Positions 5,708-51,888 of a stretch of 64,000 bases of DNA are shown piece after piece. The stretch lies in IMG/VR virus record IMGVR_UViG_3300044614_001923, one strand, 5' to 3'. Origin of the DNA: a virus. Its lineage: Duplodnaviria > Caudoviricetes. Under the pieces are notes generated by a model. That model was given only the letters and a program-made list of their open reading frames with translations, searched no databases and was not told the DNA's origin. Made by a program: the position numbers and the translations under genes. Position 1 is the first letter of the stretch. Every line of letters begins with the position of its first letter.

Positions 5708-6787
5708 TCAACCGATGCTAGGAGCAGTGAGAGCAACAGGAGTGTTCTCAGCAGCAGCAAGGTCAAGAGGGAAGTTGTGAGCGTTACGCTCGTGCATGAC
5801 TTCCATACCCAGACCAGCGCGGTTCAGAACGTCTGCCCAAGTGTTGAGTACACGACCCTGACTGTCAATGATGGACTGGTTGAAGTTGAAACCGTTGAGG
5901 TTGAACGCCATAGTGCTAACACCAAGAGCAGTGAACCAGATTCCTACAACGGGCCAAGCAGCAAGGAAGAAGTGCAGTGAACGTGAGTTATTGAAGGAAG
6001 CATATTGGAAAATAAGGCGTCCGAAATAACCGTGAGCAGCTACAATGTTGTAGGTCTCTTCTTCTTGTCCGAACTTGTATCCATAGTTCTGTGACTCATT
6101 TTCTGTCGTCTCACGTACAAGACTAGAGGTGACAAGAGATCCGTGCATAGCAGAGAAAAGAGAACCACCGAAGACACCAGCAACTCCCAACATGTGGAAA
6201 GGATGCATAAGAATGTTGTGTTCTGCCTGGAAAACAAGCATGTAGTTGAAAGTTCCCGAAATCCCAAGAGGCATAGCGTCACTGAAGGATCCTTGACCAA
6301 AGGGATAGACCAGGAACACTGCAGAAGCAGCAGCAACGGGTGCAGAGTAGGCAACACAAATCCAAGGACGCATACCGAGTCGGTAAGAAAGTTCCCATTC
6401 GCGTCCCATGTAAGCATAGATGCCAATCAGAAAGTGGAATACGACCAGTTGGAAAGGTCCACCATTATATAGCCACTCATCTAGGGAAGCAGCTTCCCAA
6501 ATAGGATAAAAGTGTAGTCCAATTGCATTAGAAGAAGGAACAACGGCACCAGAGATAATGTTGTTTCCGTACATGAGTGAACCAGCAACGGGTTCGCGGA
6601 TGCCATCAATGTCTACAGGGGGAGCACCAATGAATGCGATGATAAAACAAGTAGCAGCAGCAAGCAGCGTTGGAATCATTAGGACACCAAACCAACCCAC
6701 ATAAATGCGATTGTCGGTACTGGTGATCCACTCGCAGAATTGTTCCCAAGTATTTGATTGTCGTTGACGTGAAATTGTAGCAGTCAT
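5708..6787 (-). CDS. psbA: Photosystem II D1 protein (intron-free)
   Basis: [14 protein letters not shown]...[13 protein letters not shown]; continuous 359-aa ORF. Confidence 0.99.
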
Positions 6788-7386: not shown

Positions 7387-7526
7387 ATGAAACTGTCTGG
7401 TCAGTTAATATATTGTTAGGTATTGGAATGATTTCAGTTGCTTACATAATCTACTACATACTTAAAGAAGCAACTCATGAGTTAAATGTACCAGTACAAA
7501 ATCAAAAAGATCAACAGAGTGATTGA
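7383..7526 (+). CDS. Small single-TM protein (47 aa)
   Basis: ATGA overlap; MNETVWSVNILLGIGMISVAYIIYYILKEATHE... Confidence 0.55.
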   Translation: MNETVWSVNILLGIGMISVAYIIYYILKEATHELNVPVQNQKDQQSD

Positions 7527-7824
7527 TGGAGATACTGTTGACGTTGATATTGATTTAGGTTTTAGTATTACAATCAAACAAAGAGTTCGTCTTAAAGATA
7601 TTGATGCTGCAGAAACAAGAACTATAAATCTTGAAGAAAAGCAAGCAGGTATAAACGCAAGACTTTGGTTGGAGAAAGAACTTTCCCGTGAAGGTGAATG
7701 GATTATTGAAACAACAAAAGAGGATAAGTATGGAAGAATACTTGGCACTCTTTATTTTGTCGGAGATCCTGTCACTGTAAATGAAAGAATGTTAAACGAA
7801 GGTATAGCAAAACCATACATCTAA
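7486..7824 (+). CDS. Thermonuclease (SNase-like) nuclease
   Basis: RVIDGDTVD, RVRLKDIDAAET, DKYGRILG. Confidence 0.88.
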   Translation: MYQYKIKKINRVIDGDTVDVDIDLGFSITIKQRVRLKDIDAAETRTINLEEKQAGINARLWLEKELSREGEWIIETTKEDKYGRILGTLYFVGDPVTVNERMLNEGIAKPYI

Positions 7825-7889: not shown

Positions 7890-8216
7890 ATGAAGGACGC
7901 AGACCACAACCAAGAAAACAATTCCCAGAACTCATCAGATTCATCAGAAGACCAGCAAAAAGAGGCAAGAAAAAATCGCGGTTCTATCTTGAACAAATTA
8001 ATCTTTGTTATTTGCTGCTCAGTAGTTGCATTTGTCGGAATGAACTTTGTTTCCTGCAACTTTATGCTTCCAGGTTCTATGAATGAAGCAAATGCTAAGG
8101 GAGAATTAAAAAATCCTCCTCCTTTAGATTGCAAAGAATCTGAAAGAAGAGGATATGAAACTTTATTAGCAATTTTAACTACAGTAATTGCACTAAGAAC
8201 TAAAATAGAAGATTAA
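7890..8216 (+). CDS. Two-TM membrane protein, holin-like candidate
   Basis: Hydrophobic segments LIFVICCSVVAFVGMNF and LLAILTTVIAL; converges on the lysozyme stop. Confidence 0.5.
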   Translation: MKDADHNQENNSQNSSDSSEDQQKEARKNRGSILNKLIFVICCSVVAFVGMNFVSCNFMLPGSMNEANAKGELKNPPPLDCKESERRGYETLLAILTTVIALRTKIED

Positions 8217-8700
8217 GAATTCCAAAGTTTACCTTCAGCAGTTCTTCTACGGGCAAGTCCTTTCTCTACGTTAGTTCCAGGATTGCGATAGAGATATAAA
8301 GCATCAGAAACTTTAGACCATTCTTTATTTTTAAGAACTCTAGTTATGGTATTAAAATTGGAAGACCCGTAAAAACCAGAACCAAGATTATAAGCAAAAG
8401 ATAGAAGAGCTCCTTGTTGATTTTCATTCATCTCATTCCAATAAGGGATTTTTTGAAGTGCAGGAAGAAATCTATGTTCAAGGTCAAATAATAATAATTT
8501 ATCAGCATATTCTTGTGTTATTTTCTTTCCAAGCATAAACGTAGATCCATTAAAATCTTTTGTACTTCCCCACCCAATCGTGATTGGTTCCTTTTTAGTA
8601 AGTGGATCTGGATATGCATATAAATGACACCCCTCAAATTCTCTAATTAAATCAACACCACATTGAGGAATTTTTAATTGTGGTGTTGATTCTACTTTTT
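8213..8700 (-). CDS. GH24 lysozyme domain with no own start codon; reachable by -1 frameshift from 8692..9411
   Basis: Frame open from 8703: KKVESTPQLKIPQCGVDLIREFEGCHLYAYPDPLTKKEPITIGWGST...FMLGKK. The E-x8-D-x-T-like catalytic region lies upstream of the only ATG (8536). Confidence 0.85.
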
Positions 8701-8701
8701 T
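8650..8701 (-). promoter_or_regulatory. Candidate -1 programmed ribosomal frameshift signal
   Basis: A_AAA_AAG at 8701-8695, then TAG, then a 13-bp perfect inverted repeat (8679-8691 with 8650-8662). Confidence 0.7.
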
Positions 8702-9411
8702 GCATTAAAAATTCTTCCCCATCCATCATTACCATTAGGACACCATCTACGAGCAAGTTCTGAACGCTTGTAGACTGCTCCCTTACCATTTGCTACAGAA
8801 CCTGTATATCCGTCATTAAGACTACCGTAAGGGTCATTAACAACATAATCACCAGATGGAGTCTTACCAATAACTACAACCATGTGCCCACCAGTAGGTG
8901 CAGATAAAGAACCCCTGTGCAGAATACCAATAACGACAGGTCTCCCAGCAGATAAATTACTATCAAGATCAGAAAAAGAAAGACTGTAACTAAAGTGTGA
9001 CTGAATACCATAAGAGGCAAGAACTTTGGTCTGAACCAAATGATCAGTCGTGTCGCCAATTTGGAAAACTTTTTGTACATAGGCGTCATCGCCTTTAGGA
9101 CCTTTTAATGTTCCAGATTTGAAATATTCAAGGCACATTGCACAAGCAGATGAATTACAAGTTCTGTCAGCATCCCTGTAGTTATCTGTTTGTGGGTAAA
9201 AAGGAACTGCTAAGATACTTGCTTGTGGTTTTTCTTCTTTAGTTCTAAAAATTCTAACCCAGTTTGCATCATCTTGCATTAATTCCTGTGCTTTGAGAAA
9301 CAAATCTTTTTCAAATTGCTCTACTGCAGCAACATGCTTTGGATTATTCTCATCAAAGTGTTTAAAGAAGTTGTGAAGATCTATAATCATTGGTATATCC
9401 AAACCCTGCAC
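8692..9411 (-). CDS. Peptidase C39-like cell-wall hydrolase domain protein
   Basis: VPFYPQTDN...RTCNSSAC, GGHMVVVIG, VVNDPYG. Confidence 0.8.
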   Translation of the reverse strand: MQGLDIPMIIDLHNFFKHFDENNPKHVAAVEQFEKDLFLKAQELMQDDANWVRIFRTKEEKPQASILAVPFYPQTDNYRDADRTCNSSACAMCLEYFKSGTLKGPKGDDAYVQKVFQIGDTTDHLVQTKVLASYGIQSHFSYSLSFSDLDSNLSAGRPVVIGILHRGSLSAPTGGHMVVVIGKTPSGDYVVNDPYGSLNDGYTGSVANGKGAVYKRSELARRWCPNGNDGWGRIFNAKK

Positions 9412-9421
9412 TATATTTATG

Positions 9422-9446
9422 AAAAAAGGAGGGTTTTACCCCTCCT
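9422..9446 (-). terminator. Intrinsic terminator
   Basis: AGGAGGG...CCCTCCT hairpin plus T-run. Confidence 0.7.
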
Positions 9447-9450
9447 CACT

Positions 9451-20541: not shown

Positions 20542-21920
20542 GGTTGATAGTGCTCCAAGAAATAATTCAAGTCTTCTGGGGTTCCAATACCCCACATTTT
20601 TTTAATATCTTTGATACGGATTTTCTTCCCATCTTGAATTGCTTCATTATAGACTGGGCAAACATAAAATTCATTATTAACACGAATATTTTTTTCAATC
20701 ATTTGCTCAGCATATTTTACATAATCAGATCCTTTTGTCCAGAAGTAGACACCAACAGTAGCATTGTCACTGATTGGTTTCTTCTCAGCAACTTCAGATA
20801 CAAACCCATCGTCCCCAATTTTAGCATATGACCACTTAGGGTGAGTAGATTTAAAAGTTAAAATTCCACCATCGACACCATCAGCATTAAATGCATAGAG
20901 ACACTCATTACTACTCCATTCTACAAATTGATCAGAGTTTGCCATCAACAGCGGATAATCATTATTGATATACTCTTTTGCAAGAAGTGTAGTACATGCC
21001 GCACCTTCCGTAAGACCATCAACTTGAACAATAGTACAATTTGGAGCAATTAGATTCAGAAGATATTGAAGACTGTATTTCTCATAATGATCTTTCTGAA
21101 CAATGAAAATATAATTTGCTTCAATGTTTAGATTCTCAACCACCACTTGAATCATAGGTTTTCCATCAACCTCAATAAGGGGTTTAGGAAATGTATATCC
21201 AGCATTTGCAAATCTACTACCTGCTCCAGCCATAGGAATCAGAACATTCATCTTATCAGATTTCCAAGGAACAACAGTTAATTTCTTGGAGGCAAATGTC
21301 TTGAAAACTATATTCATTTTATCTTGATTTAAGTCATCTCTATTTTCAATTGCAATAAGAGTTGCTCCACTATCCAGAGCACCTTGTCTTCCGATATGAC
21401 TATCTTCAAAAATTATAGTATCTTTAGGAAGTGCATTACATGCGGTCATGCATTTCCAATACATTTCGGGAAAAGGTTTATTTCTAGTTACATCTTCATT
21501 ACTGACATAGTAATCAATAAACTCAAGAATACCAAGTTTTAAAAGAACCAATTTTACAGTATTTCTAATACTATTAGATGCAACTGCAACTTGATAACCT
21601 CTCTGTTTAAGTTGCTGAAAATAATGCATTAACTCATAATCATGTTCCAATTCAGAAAAGATTTCAAGAGTTGCTTTTTGCTTATCTTCCCAAATTTGCT
21701 GATGTTTATCTACTGGAAGACCTTTTCTTTCAGTAAGCATTGCAAGTTTTCTGGACGTAGGAAGTCCATCATAAAGACTTAGATGTTCTTCTCTATTGAT
21801 AATATAATCCCAAGAAACTCTTTCTAAAGCACGGTTGAGTGCTTCATAGTGCATTTCTCTACTGTCAATCAAGACGCCATCAAGATCAAAAATTACTAGA
21901 TTATTCATATCAATCTCCAA
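20538..21920 (-). CDS. HAD phosphatase + C-terminal nucleotidyltransferase
   Basis: IFDLDGVL, NKPFPE, FEDS; then LIPMAGAGSRF...PKPLI. Confidence 0.88.
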   Translation of the reverse strand: MEIDMNNLVIFDLDGVLIDSREMHYEALNRALERVSWDYIINREEHLSLYDGLPTSRKLAMLTERKGLPVDKHQQIWEDKQKATLEIFSELEHDYELMHYFQQLKQRGYQVAVASNSIRNTVKLVLLKLGILEFIDYYVSNEDVTRNKPFPEMYWKCMTACNALPKDTIIFEDSHIGRQGALDSGATLIAIENRDDLNQDKMNIVFKTFASKKLTVVPWKSDKMNVLIPMAGAGSRFANAGYTFPKPLIEVDGKPMIQVVVENLNIEANYIFIVQKDHYEKYSLQYLLNLIAPNCTIVQVDGLTEGAACTTLLAKEYINNDYPLLMANSDQFVEWSSNECLYAFNADGVDGGILTFKSTHPKWSYAKIGDDGFVSEVAEKKPISDNATVGVYFWTKGSDYVKYAEQMIEKNIRVNNEFYVCPVYNEAIQDGKKIRIKDIKKMWGIGTPEDLNYFLEHYQP

Positions 21921-22581
21921 ACAACTGACTCATTTCTTCAAAAGTTTTAATATAATGATAAGAAATCATTTTTGAAATTTCTTCATCACTGTGACCATAA
22001 AACTCTGGATTTTGAGAATTAAAAAGATCACTGTTTACTTGCTCAACTTGATTAAAATAAAAATTTAACCCCGCAGATACATCGCCACAAACAGTATGAT
22101 AGTTACTAAAAGAACCAATACCTTTAATGATTTTAGTACTTACAAGAAATCCAGCGCCGCCAGATGGAAACTTTGCATCTAAAGGAATTACTTTATTAAC
22201 ATACATTGGATTTTCAGCATCTTTAGAAGAATCAAAGACAGATCCATATACATTATCTTCATCAAAAGAATCTATATGAGACTCAAGGTTTTCTACATTA
22301 ACGAAAGTATCATCATCAACAAAGAAAATCCAATCATAAAGATCTAACAAACTATTATCATTACCGTCAGTGAGTTCTGAAATTTTATTCAAAACATTAA
22401 TTTGCTTTTCTTCACCGCTTGCATAATCATCTCTATTAGAAACCTTAATTACATTATTCTCAGGATCATTGTGGTCAGAATAGAAAACTGTATCAATCTT
22501 TTCTGCCCAAGTCTTTGAGATGTTGTTAATTCTGTCAAGATGCTTTTTTGTTGTATTGACAAAACATATTACTTTTTTCAT
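21910..22581 (-). CDS. Fringe-like glycosyltransferase (GT31)
   Basis: WIFFVDDDTFV, SGGAGF. Confidence 0.7.
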   Translation of the reverse strand: MKKVICFVNTTKKHLDRINNISKTWAEKIDTVFYSDHNDPENNVIKVSNRDDYASGEEKQINVLNKISELTDGNDNSLLDLYDWIFFVDDDTFVNVENLESHIDSFDEDNVYGSVFDSSKDAENPMYVNKVIPLDAKFPSGGAGFLVSTKIIKGIGSFSNYHTVCGDVSAGLNFYFNQVEQVNSDLFNSQNPEFYGHSDEEISKMISYHYIKTFEEMSQLFGD

Positions 22582-28757: not shown

Positions 28758-28832
28758 TGTTTTGAATGTTGACCTTGTTATTATAAAAGTTTGACTTAAA
28801 GAAGTCAAGTAGGACAGTTTCACATCTGCCCA

Positions 28833-28905
28833 TGCTCCTTGCGTGGATCGAACACGCCTCAGGCGAATTATGAGTTCGCTGCATTCACCAGATTGCTAAA
28901 GGAGC
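28833..28905 (-). tRNA. tRNA-CAT (elongator Met or lysidine Ile2)
   Basis: Cloverleaf; GCGAA-CTCATAA-TTCGC; G1-C72 pair. Confidence 0.88.
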
Positions 28906-28908
28906 AAG

Positions 28909-28980
28909 TAGGACTGCGGGGAATTGAACCCCGTTCACACCGTTATAAGCAGTGGGCCTTAACCAATAGGCGACAGTCCC
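28909..28980 (-). tRNA. trnI: tRNA-Ile(TAT)
   Basis: CACTG-CTTATAA-CGGTG. Confidence 0.88.
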
Positions 28981-29023
28981 ATGAAGACAGATCAATTATA
29001 GGGGACCTGAAACCCTATGACAA

Positions 29024-29227
29024 TTAAGAACCTTCTTCGTGATCGGTGTGAATACGTATTATATCATCGTCTAAACCAGCACCTTTGAATATTTGTGACA
29101 CTTCTTTATATGGCATCATAACTGCATTTCCATATTCACTAGTAATCATAAAAGATTCTCCGTTTTCTACTCTTTCCATTAGATTATCAAAATCTGATTG
29201 AAATTGTTCTACAGTAAATGATTTCAT
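29024..29227 (-). CDS. Phd/YefM antitoxin-like protein
   Basis: FTVEQFQSDFDNLMERVENGESFMIT pattern. Confidence 0.55.
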   Translation of the reverse strand: MKSFTVEQFQSDFDNLMERVENGESFMITSEYGNAVMMPYKEVSQIFKGAGLDDDIIRIHTDHEEGS

Positions 29228-29260
29228 GATTAAATTAAAAAAATTGATATTAAATAAAAG

Positions 29261-29334
29261 TCGGAGTGATAGGATTTGAACCTACGACCGCCCGCTCCCA
29301 AAGCGGATGCGCTACCAAACTGCGCTACACTCCG
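29261..29334 (-). tRNA. trnP: tRNA-Pro(TGG)
   Basis: TCCGC-TTTGGGA-GCGGG. Confidence 0.95.
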
Positions 29335-29603
29335 TTACTAGAATTTTTAATTATAAGTTCTGGGGAATTTGCATTTGCTTCCTCAAGCAAAAATTTTTTA
29401 ACATCATCAAACTTAAAATAAGTTTTTATGATGTCTTTAAACTCTACGTACCAAACAACATCATCATCAGAAGCATCTTCCATTTCAGAAGGTGAATCTT
29501 TATGCTTAGGAACTGCCTCAATTACCATATGTGTATCAATACCGTGCTTTTCTTCAGCGGCAAGAATAACTTCCATGATTGGCAGATCTGCTAGACGAGT
29601 CAT
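29325..29603 (-). CDS. Hypothetical protein
   Basis: 92-aa ORF; stop region overlaps the tRNA-Pro 5' end. Confidence 0.6.
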   Translation of the reverse strand: MTRLADLPIMEVILAAEEKHGIDTHMVIEAVPKHKDSPSEMEDASDDDVVWYVEFKDIIKTYFKFDDVKKFLLEEANANSPELIIKNSSNGV

Positions 29604-29690
29604 TTGTTTGCTTTTGGAACTTAATTATTATAAGAGGGGTTCTTGAAAAAGTCAACCCCCCCCCTCTTATGTGATGTTATATTTATTAAC

Positions 29691-30713
29691 CTATCTAACG
29701 TGGTGTCCACCAAACATATAACGCATTCCGTTCAAGATTTTTGCTCCGAACGATCCGAGATTGCGTGAGTTAAATCTTTCAAATAGTGCAGTAGTAATAA
29801 CAGGAGCGGGAACCCCCAAGTCCACAGCGGCAGAAACAGTCCAACGACCCTCACCGCTGTCGGATACGCCTCCAGAGAACTGTTTAAGGCTACCATCCCT
29901 GCGTAGCACATCAGCAGTAAGATCGAGTAACCAAGACCCAACCACGCTACCACGACGCCATAGCTCAGCAACCTCAGCAACGTCAATGTCATAGCAATAG
30001 GATTCTGGATCTGCCATCGGGGCAACTTCTGCGTCACCTTCTCTAACATATTGGGCACCTGCGTTAGCATTCTTTAAAATATTGAAACCTTCGGCATATG
30101 CTTGCATAATACCATACTCAATACCATTATGCACCATCTTTACAAAGTGTCCTGCACCTGGACCGCCACAATGTAACCAACCATATTCGGCAGAAGTCAC
30201 ATCAGATGTTGGATCCGTTCTATGGCAGGAGTGAATATCTGGGGAGAGGGCGGAGAATATCTTTGAACAAGTGGTGACTGCAGTATTTCCACCTCCAACC
30301 ATAAGACAGTATCCACGATCCAAACCATAAACACCACCGCTAGTGCCACAATCAATATATTGGATACCCATTTTTGCCAGACGTTCTGCTCTCTTCCGAC
30401 TGTCTTTAAAATTGCTATTGCCATGATCAATAATAATATCTCCTTCACTACAATATCGTAGTAACTCATTGATTGTCTCCTCTACTGTTTCGGCAGGCAC
30501 AACCATTTGAAAAATGCCTGGTTGGTCATTTGTTTTAACTGCTTTAACAAGATTTTCAATTGTATCTTCTACACCAGAAACATATCCTTTTTCAAATGCT
30601 TCTTTTGCTTTTTCATAATTTCTACGATAACCCCAGACTTCAATACCTGATTTCATCATACGACGGGACATTCCTTCTCCCATGCGACCCAATCCAATTA
30701 ATCCAACTTTCAT
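29691..30713 (-). CDS. gnd: 6-phosphogluconate dehydrogenase
   Basis: GLIGLGRMG, IIDHGNS, DCGTSGG, GHFVKMVHNGIEYG. Confidence 0.96.
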   Translation of the reverse strand: MKVGLIGLGRMGEGMSRRMMKSGIEVWGYRRNYEKAKEAFEKGYVSGVEDTIENLVKAVKTNDQPGIFQMVVPAETVEETINELLRYCSEGDIIIDHGNSNFKDSRKRAERLAKMGIQYIDCGTSGGVYGLDRGYCLMVGGGNTAVTTCSKIFSALSPDIHSCHRTDPTSDVTSAEYGWLHCGGPGAGHFVKMVHNGIEYGIMQAYAEGFNILKNANAGAQYVREGDAEVAPMADPESYCYDIDVAEVAELWRRGSVVGSWLLDLTADVLRRDGSLKQFSGGVSDSGEGRWTVSAAVDLGVPAPVITTALFERFNSRNLGSFGAKILNGMRYMFGGHHVR

Positions 30714-30920
30714 TTAATACTCCCAAGATTCGTACTGTTGTCTAAAATAAACATCCACTTTATTCAAACTATCAAGATGAATATCGCATTTATAATTATG
30801 TTCATCACACCACTCTAATGCAAATGCATGAAATCTTTCTTCACTTTTGACTTTGTTTACTCCATAAATTCTAGCAAAAGAAGACATTACAAAATGCCAA
30901 CATTGATGCTCTGGTTTCAT
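30714..30920 (-). CDS. Hypothetical protein
   Basis: 68-aa ORF abutting gnd. Confidence 0.65.
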   Translation of the reverse strand: MKPEHQCWHFVMSSFARIYGVNKVKSEERFHAFALEWCDEHNYKCDIHLDSLNKVDVYFRQQYESWEY

Positions 30921-31116
30921 TGCGAATAAGCATGGTTAAGTCCCCATACTATAAAATATCCAATAAGACCAAAAATGGTTACACTTGATAAGATTAGTTT
31001 AATCATCCTCCTCGTCCTCGTAAGTTGATGGTTCCTCGAATAGTTCTTCCATTTTTTGTTGCAGAACCCTTTCTTGCAATCCTTTTAAATCTTCTTCTGT
31101 AAATCTAAACACCATA

Positions 31117-31323
31117 CTAATTTAGAGTAACATTAAGCCATGGAAATATTGGAGGAATTACTCCAATAAGTCTAAGAAGACCTTCAGCGAAAAGTGCAAG
31201 AACAACCCAACCAACACACATTGAAATAATCGCAGCATTACGATTGTGTTTGCGTATTGCATCATCAATCATCTCTTTGCATTCTTCCTGAGTGATTAGT
31301 CTTTCTGGGTTCGATTTGTTCAT
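31117..31323 (-). CDS. Conserved cyanophage/cyanobacterial small membrane protein
   Basis: EMIDDAIRKHNRNAAIISM...LFAEGLLRLIG. Confidence 0.7.
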   Translation of the reverse strand: MNKSNPERLITQEECKEMIDDAIRKHNRNAAIISMCVGWVVLALFAEGLLRLIGVIPPIFPWLNVTLN

Positions 31324-31455
31324 TTGGCAATTCATGAATTTTGGCGATACCAATAACGGGAAGCATAACAAGGGAAAATCCAAGAATTCCCAAACACACT
31401 TGATTATTTAATATTTCAACTACCAATTTAGCGATCATTATGATGATCTCCTGAC

Positions 31456-31722
31456 TTAATCTTCTGTGGTGAATTTATTTTCTAAACTATAAAGTCTTTT
31501 TTCCCAAGTATCTCCACCTTCTCTTCCTTTGCAAGGATTAATACAGGTAGAATCTCCATGTTTATTGCAAACAAGACCTGCAAGATCTAATTCAGATCCA
31601 TCCTTACTAACTCCTGTTCCTGTCCAAACGTGCTTACCATTTAACCAAACGGCGCCGCACTTTGGACATTCTTTTCTCTGTAAGGAGAGATCAGAAAGTT
31701 CTCTATCGGAATTTGATTGCAT
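31456..31722 (-). CDS. Cys-rich hypothetical protein
   Basis: ECPKCGAVW...DLAGLVCN...CINP. Confidence 0.7.
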   Translation of the reverse strand: MQSNSDRELSDLSLQRKECPKCGAVWLNGKHVWTGTGVSKDGSELDLAGLVCNKHGDSTCINPCKGREGGDTWEKRLYSLENKFTTED

Positions 31723-31841
31723 GAGATACCTCTATTTAAACTTTTGCATTTACGCCCAGTATATCTCATCTTCCACCAAATATATATTATCAATAACAAA
31801 TCTCAATATTAGATTGTTATGAGACGATAACATTTTTAAAA

Positions 31842-31925
31842 CGGAAAGGGTGGGATTCGAACCCACGGTGCTCATCACACGGCAGTTTTCAAGACTGCTG
31901 CCTTAAACCACTCGGCCACCTTTCC
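31842..31925 (-). tRNA. trnS: tRNA-Ser(TGA)
   Basis: GCAGT-CTTGAAA-ACTGC; long variable arm. Confidence 0.95.
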
Positions 31926-31943
31926 AATATTGGAGGTTGTTTA

Positions 31944-32189
31944 TTAACGAACCTCAAAGTCTAGTTTACGGACTTTACGTTGTCTTCTTGCCTCTTGCCA
32001 GGCAATATCTTGAGAAGTAAGAACATTTCTTTGTTCTTTCTGTGTAGAGTTTACCATAATTACTCTACTTAAGTCAAGAGCTGAAACACTATCACCCTTT
32101 ACAGTCATCATATTGTGACAACCACAAACCTGAATTTTATTCGTACTGGTCAACTCTTTGTTACAATCTTTACATCTTACTATAATCAT
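31944..32189 (-). CDS. Zn-ribbon hypothetical protein
   Basis: CKDC...CGC...RKVRKLDFEVR. Confidence 0.75.
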   Translation of the reverse strand: MIIVRCKDCNKELTSTNKIQVCGCHNMMTVKGDSVSALDLSRVIMVNSTQKEQRNVLTSQDIAWQEARRQRKVRKLDFEVR

Positions 32190-32204
32190 GATTCATAAAT
32201 CCTA

Positions 32205-32639
32205 TCATTGTGTAAACGATCTTAACATCCAAATAAATTTACCGTGCGCTTCATTTAAATCATCAACAAGGTTTATAGTTCCTTTTGATTTATTTGACTC
32301 TGCTTCATCTGATACTTGAGTCAAAAGTTCTACAATTTTCTGATGACCTTCTAATAGATCACGAATCATTCCCATAGTATCTAGCCCACTATTTGTCTCA
32401 GTAATATGAGAAACTTCAGTAATTCTAGAAAGAGTTGGAACTGGTTTTACATTCAAAAATCTCATATGTTCAGTGATTCGATCTACCTCATCAAACATTG
32501 CTTCATATTGTTCGCCAAACAAATCATGAAATTGTTTGAAATCTTCTCCAACTACATTCCAATGATATACCCAAGTCTTTTGAAAAAGTACAAAAAGACT
32601 TGCTTGAGTGTCGGAAAGTAATTTATATAGTGTTTCCAT
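32205..32639 (-). CDS. dps: Dps / ferritin-like DNA protection protein
   Basis: YHWNVVG..F..FHDLF, DRITEH, HGKFIWMLRS. Confidence 0.9.
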   Translation of the reverse strand: METLYKLLSDTQASLFVLFQKTWVYHWNVVGEDFKQFHDLFGEQYEAMFDEVDRITEHMRFLNVKPVPTLSRITEVSHITETNSGLDTMGMIRDLLEGHQKIVELLTQVSDEAESNKSKGTINLVDDLNEAHGKFIWMLRSFTQ

Positions 32640-32666
32640 TATACTTTTTTCAAGTATTTATACAAG

Positions 32667-32738
32667 TGGGCGATACTGGATTCGAACCAGTGACCATCTC
32701 CGTGTAAAGGAGGCACTCTACCGCTGAGTTAATCGCCC
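32667..32738 (-). tRNA. trnV: tRNA-Val(TAC)
   Basis: CCTCC-TTTACAC-GGAGA. Confidence 0.95.
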
Positions 32739-32739
32739 A

Positions 32740-32814
32740 TGCCCTCTGTCTAGGAATCGAACCCAGTTTCCATGTGTGTTATCCACCCGTCCTTACCAAT
32801 AGACTACCAGAGGG
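32740..32814 (-). ncRNA. tRNA-like element with non-canonical anticodon arm
   Basis: Acceptor CCCTCTG/CAGAGGG, D and T arms present; no regular 5-bp/7-nt anticodon arm. Confidence 0.6.
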
Positions 32815-32998
32815 AAAGGTGATGAGTGGCCATCACCAGCAGAAGACACTTTCTGCGAGAGAAAACACCAAACCTTATTTTTCCTGTTCTCAGGAAGGCA
32901 CCCAGATCAATGGGGTGGGAGACCTTGCAAGGGTTTATACCTCCAAAGTTTGTCCAGCATTTTCAATTTGAAAGAACCAGACATTTCTAGTCCTTCCA
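32815..32998 (-). ncRNA. ~185-nt structured RNA, manA-motif-like
   Basis: Non-coding gap after tRNA-Asn with several stems (CCTG..CAGG, GCAGAA..TTCTGC, GGTGATG..CATCACC). Name recalled from memory. Confidence 0.45.
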
Positions 32999-32999
32999 A

Positions 33000-33071
33000 C
33001 TCCACAACCTGGATTCGAACCAGGGACCAAGTGATTAACAGTCACCGACTCTACCGCTGAGCTATTGTGGA
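33000..33071 (-). tRNA. trnN: tRNA-Asn(GTT)
   Basis: GGTGA-CTGTTAA-TCACT. Confidence 0.95.
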
Positions 33072-33079
33072 ATGTTATA

Positions 33080-33283
33080 CTACTTAGAACTTACAAAATC
33101 ATTAATCGTTTCTGCTTGCTTAAGAACATCCCGTAGAGTTGGAAACTCTGGATAATCCATCTTCACAGTATTTGAAGAATTTGCATTCCAATAACGAGCA
33201 GTATCCGTTTCAATACTGAACTGATCATTTAGCATATTATATGCTTGCTTGAATATTTCAAAACGAAGTTCGTAAGGTGACAT
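33080..33283 (-). CDS. Conserved T4-like phage small protein
   Basis: MSPYELRFEIFKQA...YPEFPT..DVLKQAE.INDFVS. Confidence 0.75.
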   Translation of the reverse strand: MSPYELRFEIFKQAYNMLNDQFSIETDTARYWNANSSNTVKMDYPEFPTLRDVLKQAETINDFVSSK

Positions 33284-33328
33284 TTATTTACTCCTGTGTG
33301 TTTGTGTGTATGGAGATTAGTCTCCAAG

Positions 33329-33400
33329 AGCGGAATAGGGGATTCGAACCCCTGACGTTCAGCTTGGAAGGCTGACATTCTACCGCTGAATTAATTCCGC
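33329..33400 (-). tRNA. trnG: tRNA-Gly(TCC)
   Basis: TCAGC-CTTCCAA-GCTGA. Confidence 0.95.
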
Positions 33401-33510
33401 ATAGTCCTCTTGATTTGTGCTTCTATGAGAGGCATAAGAGGAGTAGGACTTACATGAAGTTTGGACCTTCACTGCCAATGATAATATTGTAACCTATGAT
33501 TGATCCCTTG

Positions 33511-33999
33511 TCAAGCCCCTTCACCAAATATAAATTCTTTCCATTCATGAACTCTACTTTTTTCAAGATCTAACATTACGCGACTAAAAGGTGCTTTTGG
33601 TTCACACTTTAGTTTCATATTAGTATCTTTTAAAGACTTATTGCCCTTTTTAACATTACATGTCATACAACATGCAACTAAGTTATCCCAGGTATCCTTT
33701 CCGCCTTTTGATCTTGGAATCACATGGTCTATTGTAAGATCATTTTTTGTTCCACAATACTGACATTCATGATCATCTCTTTTATATATCAAGGCACGAG
33801 ATGGATAAGTTTCCTTTTCGTTCATGAAAGGAAGTTTTACATAATTTACTAATTTAATTATTCTTTTTGAAATAATTTTTGCCTTTTCTTTAAAACAAAG
33901 AACTACGGCTCTTTTCCAATTTGTAAAGTGAAGAGGTTCATATGAACTATTGAGAACCAATATTGTTGAATAAGGTTCTATGTATTCCATACTAAACAC
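33511..33999 (-). CDS. HNH endonuclease (McrA-like)
   Basis: LVLNSSYEPL, CQYCG, LTIDHVIPRSKGG..TWDNLVACC..CN..KG. Confidence 0.9.
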   Translation of the reverse strand: MFSMEYIEPYSTILVLNSSYEPLHFTNWKRAVVLCFKEKAKIISKRIIKLVNYVKLPFMNEKETYPSRALIYKRDDHECQYCGTKNDLTIDHVIPRSKGGKDTWDNLVACCMTCNVKKGNKSLKDTNMKLKCEPKAPFSRVMLDLEKSRVHEWKEFIFGEGA

Positions 34000-34030
34000 C
34001 TATACATTTGTTATTTAGATTTTAATTATA

Positions 34031-34102
34031 CACCCTGAGGAGGATTTGAACCACCGTCTTATTCGTTCGTAGCGAAGCACTCTTCCACTGAGTTATCAGG
34101 GC
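34031..34102 (-). tRNA. trnR: tRNA-Arg(ACG)
   Basis: TTCG-CTACGAA-CGAA. Confidence 0.93.
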
Positions 34103-34107
34103 GTAGG

Positions 34108-34179
34108 CGAAGGATGAGGGACTTGAACCCCCACTAGCGGTTTTGGAGACCACCGTGCTACCAATTACACCAATCCAAC
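34108..34179 (-). tRNA. trnW: tRNA-Trp(CCA), two U-U mismatches in the acceptor stem
   Basis: GTGGT-CTCCAAA-ACCGC. Confidence 0.8.
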
Positions 34180-34183
34180 ATAG

Positions 34184-34257
34184 TATCCATGAGAGGACTC
34201 GAACCTCCAACAAATAAATCCTTAGTCTATTGCCTCTTCCAATTGGGCTACATGGAT
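34184..34257 (-). tRNA. trnL: tRNA with AAG anticodon (Leu), short variable arm
   Basis: ATAGA-CTAAGGA-TTTAT; variable region TTGTT. Confidence 0.75.
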
Positions 34258-34260
34258 ATA

Positions 34261-34331
34261 CTGGGTGACTAGGACTCGAACCTAGATAAACGCCTTCAAA
34301 GGGCGGTGTCCTACCATTAGACGATCTCCCA
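34261..34331 (-). tRNA. trnQ: tRNA-Gln(TTG)
   Basis: CCGCC-CTTTGAA-GGCGT. Confidence 0.92.
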
Positions 34332-34403
34332 AGCCCTCAATTGGATTTGAACCAACGACCTACTCATTACTAGTGAGTTGCTCTACCACTGAGCTATAAG
34401 GGC
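34332..34403 (-). tRNA. trnT: tRNA-Thr(AGT)
   Basis: ACTCA-CTAGTAA-TGAGT. Confidence 0.9.
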
Positions 34404-34405
34404 GG

Positions 34406-34476
34406 GGTGCCGTATGGGAATTGAACCCATCTAGTCGGTTCCACAAACCGATGCCTTACCACTAGGCTAACGACAC
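34406..34476 (-). tRNA. trnH: tRNA-His(GTG)
   Basis: TCGGT-TTGTGGA-ACCGA; C73. Confidence 0.92.
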
Positions 34477-34477
34477 A

Positions 34478-34549
34478 AGGCAGTGGGTAGAATTGAACTA
34501 CCGACATAGAGGGTATGAATCTCTTGTTCTACCACTGAACTACACTGCC
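34478..34549 (-). tRNA. trnM: tRNA-Met(CAT), elongator-like
   Basis: AGAGA-TTCATAC-CCTCT. Confidence 0.85.
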
Positions 34550-34552
34550 AAA

Positions 34553-34639
34553 CGGAAGATGTTGGATTCGAACCAACGGAAGGATTACTCCTTCGACGGT
34601 TTAGCAAACCGTTGCTTTAGACCTCTCAGCCAATCTTCC
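34553..34639 (-). tRNA. trnS: tRNA-Ser(GCT)
   Basis: ACGGT-TTGCTAA-ACCGT; long variable arm. Confidence 0.95.
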
Positions 34640-34643
34640 AAGG

Positions 34644-34715
34644 TGGAACCGACAAGATTTGAACTTGTGACCGCTCGGTTATCAGCCGAGTGCTCTACCG
34701 CTGAGCTACGGTTCC
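34644..34715 (-). tRNA. trnI: tRNA-Ile(GAT)
   Basis: CTCGG-CTGATAA-CCGAG. Confidence 0.95.
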
Positions 34716-34719
34716 AAAG

Positions 34720-34791
34720 TATTCCTAACGGGATTCGAACCCGTGCTGCCACCTTGAAAGGGTGGTGACCTAACCGCTAGTCGATAGGAAC
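34720..34791 (-). tRNA. trnE: tRNA-Glu(TTC)
   Basis: CCACC-CTTTCAA-GGTGG. Confidence 0.95.
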
Positions 34792-34839
34792 TTGATGCTA
34801 CAACCGCCAAGGAGGAACACTCCACAGGCAGCGTAGCAA

Positions 34840-34911
34840 CGACCCTAACGAGATTTGAACTCGTGATACCACCGTGACAGGGTGGCGTGATAACCGCTTC
34901 ACTATAGGGTC
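34840..34911 (-). tRNA. trnD: tRNA-Asp(GTC)
   Basis: CCACC-CTGTCAC-GGTGG. Confidence 0.95.
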
Positions 34912-34915
34912 AAGG

Positions 34916-34997
34916 TGGGAGGAACAGGATTTGAACCTGTGAAGGCAGAGCCGTCTGATTTACAGTCAGATTCCTTTAACCACTCGGAAATCCTCCC
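34916..34997 (-). tRNA. trnY: tRNA-Tyr(GTA)
   Basis: TCTGA-CTGTAAA-TCAGA; variable arm. Confidence 0.95.
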
Positions 34998-35001
34998 ACG
35001 A

Positions 35002-35074
35002 TGGGTCTGGTCGGACTCGAACCGACGACTTACAGGTTAAAAGCCCGCTACTCTACCAACTGAGTTACAGACCC
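35002..35074 (-). tRNA. trnK: tRNA-Lys(TTT)
   Basis: GCGGG-CTTTTAA-CCTGT. Confidence 0.95.
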
Positions 35075-35407
35075 AAATAATATAGGATAAATATTCAGTT
35101 GTCTAGGTTCTGGTCTCTTGACCACTTGATTACAATACCACCGTTTGATCTCTGGGGGGGAGGTTGGTGGACGCTTAGGAAACTGTCACAGACAACAAAA
35201 AAGGGGAGAGAAACTAAAAGTTTCCTCCCCTGTCTTTTTGCTTTTATGGATTACATCTTACATATGTTTTTCCATATTCGCAAACAGGGGAGTGCCCTCA
35301 ATATGCCAATAGCGGCAATCAAGAGTACTAATCTGTTTGTTCATTTGGAAAGACATTGTTTTCGACCTAAGTATGTTTATTTATAAGACTTTTCAATAAA
35401 AAGTCAA

Positions 35408-35481
35408 CGACTCAAGTAGGACTCGAACCTACGACCGACTGCTTAGAAGGCAGTTGCTCTATCCATCTGAGCTATTGAGTC
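35408..35481 (-). tRNA. trnR: tRNA-Arg(TCT)
   Basis: ACTGC-CTTCTAA-GCAGT. Confidence 0.95.
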
Positions 35482-35519
35482 ATGAGACAATTTTATCCGA
35501 TATGAATTCAATTGTCAAG

Positions 35520-35602
35520 TAGGACGAGAGGGACTTGAACCCTCACAGGCAATGCCCGACAGATTTTAAGTCTGGTGTGTCTACCAATTCCACCACCGTC
35601 CC
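35520..35602 (-). tRNA. trnL: tRNA-Leu(TAA)
   Basis: CCAGA-CTTAAAA-TCTGT; long variable arm; no intron. Confidence 0.95.
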
Positions 35603-35628
35603 GCAAAATATACCTCTTAGAGAGGTAA

Positions 35629-35721
35629 TAGGAGTGGAGGGACTCGAACCCCCAACCGCACGGTAATCTGCCGTATACGGAAGGTATAAGCTTCCCGCTC
35701 TGCCAATTGAGCTACACTCCC
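35629..35721 (-). tRNA. tRNA with TAT anticodon and ~25-nt extra arm (Ile-like, identity uncertain)
   Basis: GGAAG-CTTATAC-CTTCC followed by TACGG-CAGATTA-CCGTG arm; 93 nt. Confidence 0.75.
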
Positions 35722-51661: not shown

Positions 51662-51695
51662 AAAACTAAAAGGTTACGCTTTTAGATATTTAGAA

Positions 51696-51768
51696 TGGAG
51701 AATAGGAGACTCGAACTCCTGACACCCGCCTTGCAAAGGCGATGCTCTACCAACTGAGCTAATTCCCC
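51696..51768 (-). tRNA. trnA: tRNA-Ala(TGC)
   Basis: TCGCC-TTTGCAA-GGCGG; G3-U70. Confidence 0.96.
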
Positions 51769-51888
51769 AGATGGATTAAGTGTGATATATCTCATAAGGA
51801 CATAACAGGGACTTAACCTCTATCTTATATAGTATAAAACCCCTCAACTAAAAAGTCAAGGGGTCGGACTAACTTCCTGATTTAGTTA

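Follow-up and report, generated by a model that had tools for sequence, protein, structure and literature searches.

A probable programmed −1 ribosomal frameshift joining a cysteine peptidase to a start-less lysozyme in cyanomyoviruses

Introduction

The window analysed here, a stretch of 64,000 nucleotides (nt) from a tailed phage (Caudoviricetes; IMG/VR record IMGVR_UViG_3300044614_001923), carries on its minus strand a cysteine peptidase open reading frame (ORF) followed directly, in the −1 frame, by a lysozyme that has its catalytic residues but no start codon ahead of them. How could such a lysozyme be made? A first-pass annotation, drawn from the letters alone, had proposed programmed −1 ribosomal frameshifting: the peptidase ORF ends on an in-frame A_AAA_AAG, a perfect hairpin begins 3 nt later, a TAA closes the −1 frame just before the site, and the lysozyme on the ORF track lacks its active site. 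All of these features were found as described, and comparison with relatives of the phage supports the proposal strongly. The following elements carry the argument.

8692..9390, minus strand: zero-frame Peptidase_C39_2 ORF, 232 amino acids (aa) and TAG (PF13529, E 6e-13)
8213..8695, minus strand: GH24 lysozyme part in the −1 frame, 160 codons and TAA (PF00959, E 1e-21)
8707-8705, minus strand: TAA closing the −1 frame, two codons upstream of the heptamer
8701-8695, minus strand: slippery heptamer A_AAA_AAG, in phase, with codons AAA (8700-8698) and AAG (8697-8695)
8694-8692, minus strand: zero-frame stop TAG, abutting the heptamer on its 3′ side and ending the peptidase-only product
8650..8691, minus strand: candidate stimulatory hairpin with a 13-bp stem and a 16-nt loop, arms at 8691-8679 and 8662-8650

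Results and Discussion

The lysozyme and peptidase reading frames

After the TAA, the −1 frame reads CKKVESTPQLKIPQCGVDLIREFEG... up to the stop at 8215-8213, with the linker VESTPQLKIPQ ahead of the GH24 domain. The domain match, over residues 22-157, is well above threshold (78 bits, cut-off 22.3), and the lysozyme aligns to positions 244-405 of the PHROG 3617 profile. The codon of the catalytic Glu lies at 8635-8633, the catalytic Asp is in the motif YPD, and no ATG, GTG or TTG occurs in this frame of the window before the Glu codon. The TAA at 8707-8705 closes the frame upstream, therefore initiation further upstream is impossible. The 107-aa ORF called mechanically from 8536 starts downstream of both catalytic residues. 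Judged by these matches, the −1 ORF is a GH24 phage lysozyme, a predicted enzyme with its catalytic residues in place.

Relatives keep the same arrangement. They have TGA or TAA at the equivalent site (opening of the lysozyme frame minus peptidase stop = −10), each of the 62 complete relatives has a −1 frame that is uninterrupted over 156-172 codons, and the EFEG...YPD catalytic motif is present in 61 of them. Compared with the lysozyme of the window, the ratio of non-synonymous to synonymous substitution rates (dN/dS) is 0.10-0.36, with dS values that reach saturation. By these measures the start-less lysozyme is under purifying selection.

The peptidase ORF consists of an N-terminal module of about 55 aa with the pattern IDLHNFFKxYDExNP, and then a papain-like Peptidase_C39_2 domain (50 bits, cut-off 24), and it aligns to positions 1-235 of PHROG 3617. 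The Cys, His and Asp columns are invariant in an alignment of 15 fusion homologues. Homologues fall into 1963 clusters, of which the top 120 measure 229-254 aa. Because homologues begin with MIIDLHNFF or MKIDLHNFF, the real start is probably the ATG at 9390 rather than the GTG at 9411 chosen by the ORF finder, and the products would therefore measure 232 and 392 aa; the sizes of 239 and 399 aa given at first pass are corrected accordingly. The substrate of the peptidase would presumably be the stem peptide of peptidoglycan. A PDB sequence search with the peptidase gave no significant match, and an AlphaFold2 model of a natural fusion (L310) was too poor for use, with a mean predicted local distance difference test (pLDDT) score of 59.

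The slip site is conserved in phase

On the minus strand the peptidase ORF ends with AAT GCA AAA AAG TAG. The heptamer A_AAA_AAG was in phase at 62 of the 63 junctions of this layout (hereafter the frameshift layout) that were analysed in detail, the sole exception being phage S-CAM7, which has T_TTT_TTT in the same phase within a T8 run. The codon before the heptamer ends in A in all cases (GTA 29, GCA 28, ACA 4, GAA 1), and the residue that it encodes varies among Val, Ala, Thr and Glu. In 58 of 63 relatives a zero-frame stop comes immediately after the heptamer; the stop codon is TAG in 56 of the 63. In the remainder of these peptidase ORFs, AAG makes up 35% of Lys codons and Lys-Lys is written AAA-AAG in 4 of 33 instances; by chance, a given X-K-K would be written NNA-AAA-AAG with a probability of about 0.06 per lineage. 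This pattern indicates selection on the slip site.

The length of the A run was reproduced outside the record itself. Contigs from two further DNA sequencing runs of other samples, X3 record 4 (8631-8910) and X6 record 13 (8402-8724; run dated 2016), span it unchanged, with zero differences and no indel. Since A6 recurs in independent runs, the objection of a homopolymer error fails for this window.

Within long ORFs of the 64-kb window alone, 2 of 21 occurrences of AAAAAAG are in phase, which is suggestive, though not conclusive, of avoidance of the heptamer. The other in-phase A_AAA_AAG lies at 22549 (minus strand) in the ORF 21910-22581, at about codon 11 of 223 aa. It has no hairpin, its −1 frame stops after three codons, and its occurrence is probably due to chance.

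One further element upstream of the heptamer had been taken at first pass for a stimulator of Shine-Dalgarno (SD) type.

8720-8716, minus strand: GGGGA run, SD-like, 14 nt upstream of the heptamer, within conserved Gly-Trp-Gly codons

The run is indeed present, and TGGGG is also found in relatives that do not have the frameshift layout. The run sits in invariant Trp-Gly codons, and a possible stimulatory role is inseparable from the coding constraint of the GWG motif.

A covarying hairpin follows the slip site

The arms of the hairpin are AATCAACACCACA (8691-8679) and TGTGGTGTTGATT (8662-8650), the 5′ arm adjoining the stop and so beginning 3 nt past the heptamer. The hairpin folds at −18.7 kcal/mol (z −5.33), and none of 200 dinucleotide shuffles was as stable. 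In the window the 3′ arm codes for C-G-V-D-L of the lysozyme and the 5′ arm lies within the linker. Across lineages, the 3′ arm always spans the G-V-(D/E)-L codons (columns −27 to −14, counted from the codon of the catalytic Glu), and the 5′ arm falls in the variable linker, so that the position of the hairpin is constant while its sequence varies, with at least six stem families. All start-less junctions fold a hairpin beginning 2-7 nt past the heptamer (mean z −3.3), whereas no stable structure forms at junctions with an ATGA-type start for the lysozyme (mean z about 0, no better than shuffles). The latter junctions are a natural negative control for the hairpin.

Stems were compared with a codon-anchored pair table and a covariance-model alignment; a MAFFT alignment of all stem families placed the 5′ arms out of register between families and was not used. 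In the pair table, the wobble columns of the 3′ arm pair as AU, UA, GC, CG or GU depending on the lineage, with up to six pair types per stem position among 62 sequences. At column −22, for example, A-T was found 25 times, T-A 13, G-C 12, C-G 3 and wobble 6. In an ungapped alignment of the stem family of the window (22 sequences), 98.6% of cells are paired and four pairs show changes on both sides; none of 500 shuffles reached these values, and sliding the partner reduced pairing to 30-45%. When a covariance model built from this family was used to realign 62 junctions of all families, 91% of 710 cells were paired, a count that leans towards structure because the alignment is fitted to it. The compensatory changes thus found indicate that the stem, like the slip site, is under selection.

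The loop of the hairpin may take part in a second pairing.

8629..8671, minus strand: possible second pseudoknot stem, loop 8671-8663 complementary to 8637-8629 (EFEG codons)

This pairing holds at 98% in the 22 sequences of the window family, with one-sided changes only and no compensatory double change among them, and for that reason the downstream H-type pseudoknot is considered only possible. Two relatives, L031 and L028, have other complements between loop and downstream sequence, of 14 and 9 nt.

The layout recurs in related phages

The closest relatives of the window in databases are T4-like cyanomyoviruses (Kyanoviridae) such as S-SRM01, S-PM2, S-CREM1 and DSL-LC03, with just 64-74% DNA identity across the studied region, and the public runs from which this region was recovered are lake-water metagenomes. 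On the basis of its gene content, these relatives and these sources, the phage is an uncultured freshwater cyanomyovirus of T4-like type. Three scans of IMG/VR, taking the best 80 loci per scan, gave about 240 loci, a sample that leans to relatives of the queries. From these, 134 distinct 3′ junctions of the peptidase gene were classified, some pattern-match classifications being corrected by hand.

69 of 134 junctions: frameshift layout
17 of 134 junctions: in-frame peptidase-lysozyme fusion
15 of 134 junctions: separate lysozyme gene, often with its own N-terminal domain
14 of 134 junctions: heptamer kept, start codon overlapping the stop
11 of 134 junctions: adjacent lysozyme absent
5 of 134 junctions: overlapping start, heptamer absent
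3 of 134 junctions: reverse-order fusion

The frameshift layout is far beyond chance, since it recurs in 69 of 134 distinct related junctions. Thirty-six of the 69, the window included, have zero canonical starts before the catalytic Glu, and 32 contain an internal GTG or TTG. In a maximum-likelihood tree of 86 peptidases the frameshift layout occurs throughout (62 of 86 rows). The remaining layouts branch from within it, and at least five changes are required by well-supported branches.

Several named phages illustrate the range of solutions. In S-PM2, the peptidase ends GAT GCA AAA AAG TAA, the lysozyme is start-less in the −1 frame, and the stem, AGCTCTACT / AGTAGAGCT, differs in sequence from that of the window; the GenBank entry at this locus has only a 72-aa "putative lysin" fragment (p157) that is missing the active site. 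The junction of S-CAM7 reads GTT TTT TTT CCA CAG TAG and is followed by a −1-frame lysozyme with yet another stem, and here too the annotated "lysin" is a truncated fragment without the active site. S-SRM01 retains the heptamer and its lysozyme ATG overlaps the stop (ATGA). DSL-LC02 and DSL-LC03 have two genes, the lysozyme carrying its own copy of the N-terminal IDLHNFFKxYDE module, and in S-CREM1 the two domains are fused in reverse order.

Lysozymes encoded as separate genes (L004 and L005, which are DSL-LC03 and DSL-LC02, and L063, L067, L158 and L163) often have their own N-terminal module of about 55 aa. It is either a copy of the IDLHNFFKxYDE module or of a second type, MSIKFIDAVKN...LPHQxDAW. 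The sharing of the N-terminal module between the two enzymes suggests that it is a common targeting or assembly domain.

Natural fusions match the predicted product

The protein expected from a −1 shift exists in relatives as an uninterrupted reading frame. ACG-2014f has a single-frame peptidase-lysozyme of 405 aa, as do about 13 marine contigs, and PHROG 3617 (405 positions) is colinear with the two pieces of the window. Five IMG/VR contigs (L310-L313 and L314) carry A7 alleles, reading GTA or ATA followed by AAA AAA GTA GAA, whose product ...DVKKVENSTP... equals that predicted from a −1 shift at the A6 site. In these contigs the fusion is in frame and the hairpin is still present. Exact-match contigs with the A7 run come from three DNA runs belonging to different studies, and slightly different A6 strains co-occur with A7 strains in the same lake metagenomes. 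We believe these reading frames show that the peptidase-lysozyme fusion is a real protein in relatives.

Two in-frame fusions, L166 (ACG-2014f) and L315, contain GCA or GTA followed by AAA AAG TCT GA and a downstream hairpin, which is GGAGGG/CCCTCC in ACG-2014f. A −1 shift at this point would meet an immediate stop (GTC TGA) and leave only the peptidase, the reverse of the situation in the window. As a conserved feature this mirror frameshift is unsupported, because about 10 other in-frame fusions do not have the heptamer; L315 is a single contig.

Choosing among explanations

We consider a programmed −1 ribosomal frameshift, giving a 232-aa peptidase and a 392-aa peptidase-lysozyme fusion, to be the likely explanation of the locus. 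One late transcript would carry the peptidase ORF and the start-less lysozyme in the −1 frame. Most ribosomes would read GCA AAA AAG and terminate at the adjacent TAG, which yields the 232-aa product with its N-terminal module and C39-like cysteine peptidase. Some ribosomes would be stalled on A_AAA_AAG by the downstream hairpin, perhaps a pseudoknot, and slip back by one base, the tRNA-Lys(UUU) molecules re-pairing on AAA AAA, and continue with GTA GAA TCA..., so as to produce the 392-aa peptidase-linker-GH24 fusion with the junction ...IFNAKK-VESTPQ.... We infer that the slippage is ribosomal, and likewise the efficiency of the shift. Both products would presumably act on host peptidoglycan at lysis, and a set ratio between them might tune lysis, as the first-pass annotation supposed.

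The tRNA expected to slip is encoded by the phage itself.

35000..35075, minus strand: phage tRNA-Lys, anticodon UUU, expected to slip on A_AAA_AAG

The window has 25 tRNA genes, none of them a tRNA-Lys(CUU); the phage thus provides the very tRNA predicted to slip at its frameshift site. A near-complete Synechococcus sp. metagenome-assembled genome (MAG G001), whose psbA is 89% identical to the psbA of the phage, has 44 typed tRNAs with one Lys(UUU) and zero CUU.

Several points weigh against a programmed ribosomal frameshift as the explanation. In the window the spacer between the heptamer and the first stem pair is only 2-3 nt; the core of the stem that contains G+C starts about 6 nt past the heptamer, and other families have spacers of 4-7 nt. 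The genome typed for tRNAs, MAG G001, is not a proven host of the window phage, and the covariance-model count carries the lean already mentioned. A fixed ratio of two products is not universally required, because some relatives make the fusion only and others make separate enzymes. Finally, because the slip site is a homopolymer, slippage by RNA polymerase would yield the same protein.

It could also be that the locus is a tunable switch, in which the pseudoknot and the supply of phage tRNA-Lys(UUU) set the shift efficiency, the ratio of free peptidase to bifunctional lysin and the timing of lysis, and in which populations retune by toggling among A6 alleles (two products), A7 alleles (fusion only) and ATGA-overlap alleles (two enzymes). 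We regard this elaboration as rather unlikely.

Transcriptional slippage, the competitor that survives best, is improbable as the explanation, although it may make a contribution. The polymerase would add one A to A6, and the resulting subset of A7 mRNAs would encode the fusion with no shift by the ribosome. Besides the homopolymer at the site, the T8 run at the same place in S-CAM7 and the genomic A7 alleles that encode the same protein would fit such a process. Sites of transcriptional slippage are typically A or T runs of 8-9 or more, with no requirement for phase. Here, however, 62 of 63 junctions have precisely A6 and then a G; the run is not lengthened to 8-9 and keeps the X_XXY_YYZ phase throughout, and a covarying structure lies 3′ of the site at a spacing like that of programmed frameshift signals. 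Decoding conditions point the same way: A_AAA_AAG is most prone to shifting where a sole tRNA-Lys reads both codons, Thermus, with two tRNA-Lys, uses polymerase slippage instead, and a host-type genome with tRNA-Lys(UUU) alone thus favours slippage by the ribosome (PMC5009743). As for RNA, a metatranscriptome contig from run X23 terminates at 8700, inside the heptamer, and the sole metatranscriptome contig across the run, from a relative (run X42), has A6, which is weak evidence against polymerase slippage because contigs drop minor variants. Run length, phase, the covarying 3′ structure and decoding conditions together favour the ribosome over the polymerase.

Independent initiation of the lysozyme, either at a non-canonical start such as an AUU or AUC Ile codon in the loop or by termination and reinitiation after the TAG, is very unlikely. 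Coupling of this kind does exist in this gene pair, as S-SRM01 and similar phages use an ATGA overlap, and the internal GTG or TTG in 32 junctions of the frameshift layout might serve as starts. These internal codons are unconserved and lie within or adjoining the 3′ arm, and the window and 35 other junctions do not have any ATG, GTG or TTG before the catalytic Glu. An SD-like motif is absent, the candidate codons are inside a stable hairpin, and independent initiation leaves the conserved in-phase heptamer unexplained.

A homopolymer error or a broken gene, that is, a true A7 (plain fusion), a true A5 (a separate MQKVEST... gene) or a decaying lysozyme pseudogene, is barely credible, for although A7 alleles occur in relatives and A5 would bring an ATG into frame, A6 is identical in the X3 and X6 contigs and shared by 62 distinct relatives, purifying selection acts on an intact −1 ORF, and the covariation of the stem reflects selection on RNA.

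Genomic context

The window also includes the following elements.

5708-6787, minus strand: psbA
Elsewhere in the window: an hli gene, a peroxiredoxin gene and pstS
28832-35721 and 51695-51769, minus strand: the tRNA genes (n = 25), mostly in one array
9447-9426, minus strand: terminator-like hairpin of the upstream gene, with a T run, preceding the peptidase gene
9421-9414, minus strand: late-promoter-like CATAAATA, after the terminator-like hairpin (whole element 9414..9447)

We take CATAAATA to resemble a T4-type late promoter. Between the peptidase and lysozyme parts, no terminator or promoter match was found on the minus strand. On the plus strand, a staphylococcal-nuclease-like ORF (7486-7824; PF00565, E 4e-11) lies two genes away from the lysin locus. 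An ORF of 108 aa (7890-8216, plus strand) is convergent with the lysozyme stop; its N-terminus is hydrophilic, and there follow a hydrophobic stretch with a lipobox-like FVSC at its end and a C-terminal hydrophobic helix. This layout resembles that of a unimolecular spanin, and Pfam and PHROG searches with the ORF gave no match. The only lysis-cassette context consists of the late-promoter-like motif and this one small neighbouring membrane- or lipoprotein-like ORF with no family match. The two proteins are a putative lysis endolysin, with a virion-borne lysin as the alternative role.

Comparison with known systems

Tail chaperones and capsid genes account for most of the known phage frameshifts. 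The locus described here would extend conserved recoding to cell-wall hydrolases, a class of phage genes new in this respect. It would also provide a likely bifunctional lysin for phages about whose lysis genes little is known. The frameshift layout occurs in abundant freshwater and marine cyanomyoviruses, the long-studied model S-PM2 among them. Current genome annotations miss the signal, and recognizing it corrects a systematic mis-annotation, as in S-PM2 p157 and the S-CAM7 "lysin". The gene pair also offers three natural solutions for comparison, namely frameshift, in-frame fusion and separate genes, and the frameshift signal is short and readily testable in reporters. We found no description of this frameshift in full-text literature searches or in targeted reading of a recoding review, the E. 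coli heptamer study, a cyanomyovirus comparison and the S-SRM01 and S-CREM1 genome papers. The mechanism is classical, of the textbook dnaX/IS3 type; the gene context is new.

The closest parallel in signal is E. coli dnaX (tau/gamma), which has the same heptamer A_AAA_AAG, a sole tRNA-Lys(UUU), a nearby downstream stem-loop and a single gene that makes two proteins (PMC5009743). Shifting in dnaX yields the shorter protein, whereas in the window it would give the longer one, with the zero-frame stop abutting the heptamer. The upstream SD stimulator of dnaX is proven and the GGGGA of the window is only SD-like, and dnaX is a gene of E. coli while the window concerns a phage cell-wall hydrolase gene in a cyanobacterial host. 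The orfA-orfB pair of IS3 and IS911 also uses A_AAA_AAG and a 3′ structure to fuse a start-less downstream catalytic domain through the −1 frame (PMC4066793). Those elements encode transposases and often have a pseudoknot, in contrast to the phage lytic enzyme pair, in which the pseudoknot is only possible and the stop is adjacent.

Tail assembly chaperones (lambda G/GT type; Xu, Hendrix and Duda 2004, as cited in later work) likewise have a conserved −1 frameshift in late genes of double-stranded DNA phages, giving a short protein and a C-terminally extended one as predicted for the window. They differ in being structural chaperones, with slip sites usually of G_GGA_AAG types and a defined ratio of about 30:1, whereas the genes in the window encode predicted peptidoglycan hydrolases.

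In domain content, the nearest relatives are the fusions of the ACG-2014f type (PHROG 3617), with the same domains in the same order as in the window and colinear with the predicted frameshift product, and those of the S-CREM1 type (PHROG 10051), with the same domains in reverse order. Both are encoded in one frame with no recoding, and most have neither heptamer nor hairpin. Modular multi-domain endolysins, such as those of mycobacteriophages and staphylococcal phages, join a cysteine peptidase and a muramidase in one polypeptide, as is predicted here, but such second products as are known for them arise at internal in-frame starts, unlike the frameshifting proposed for this locus.

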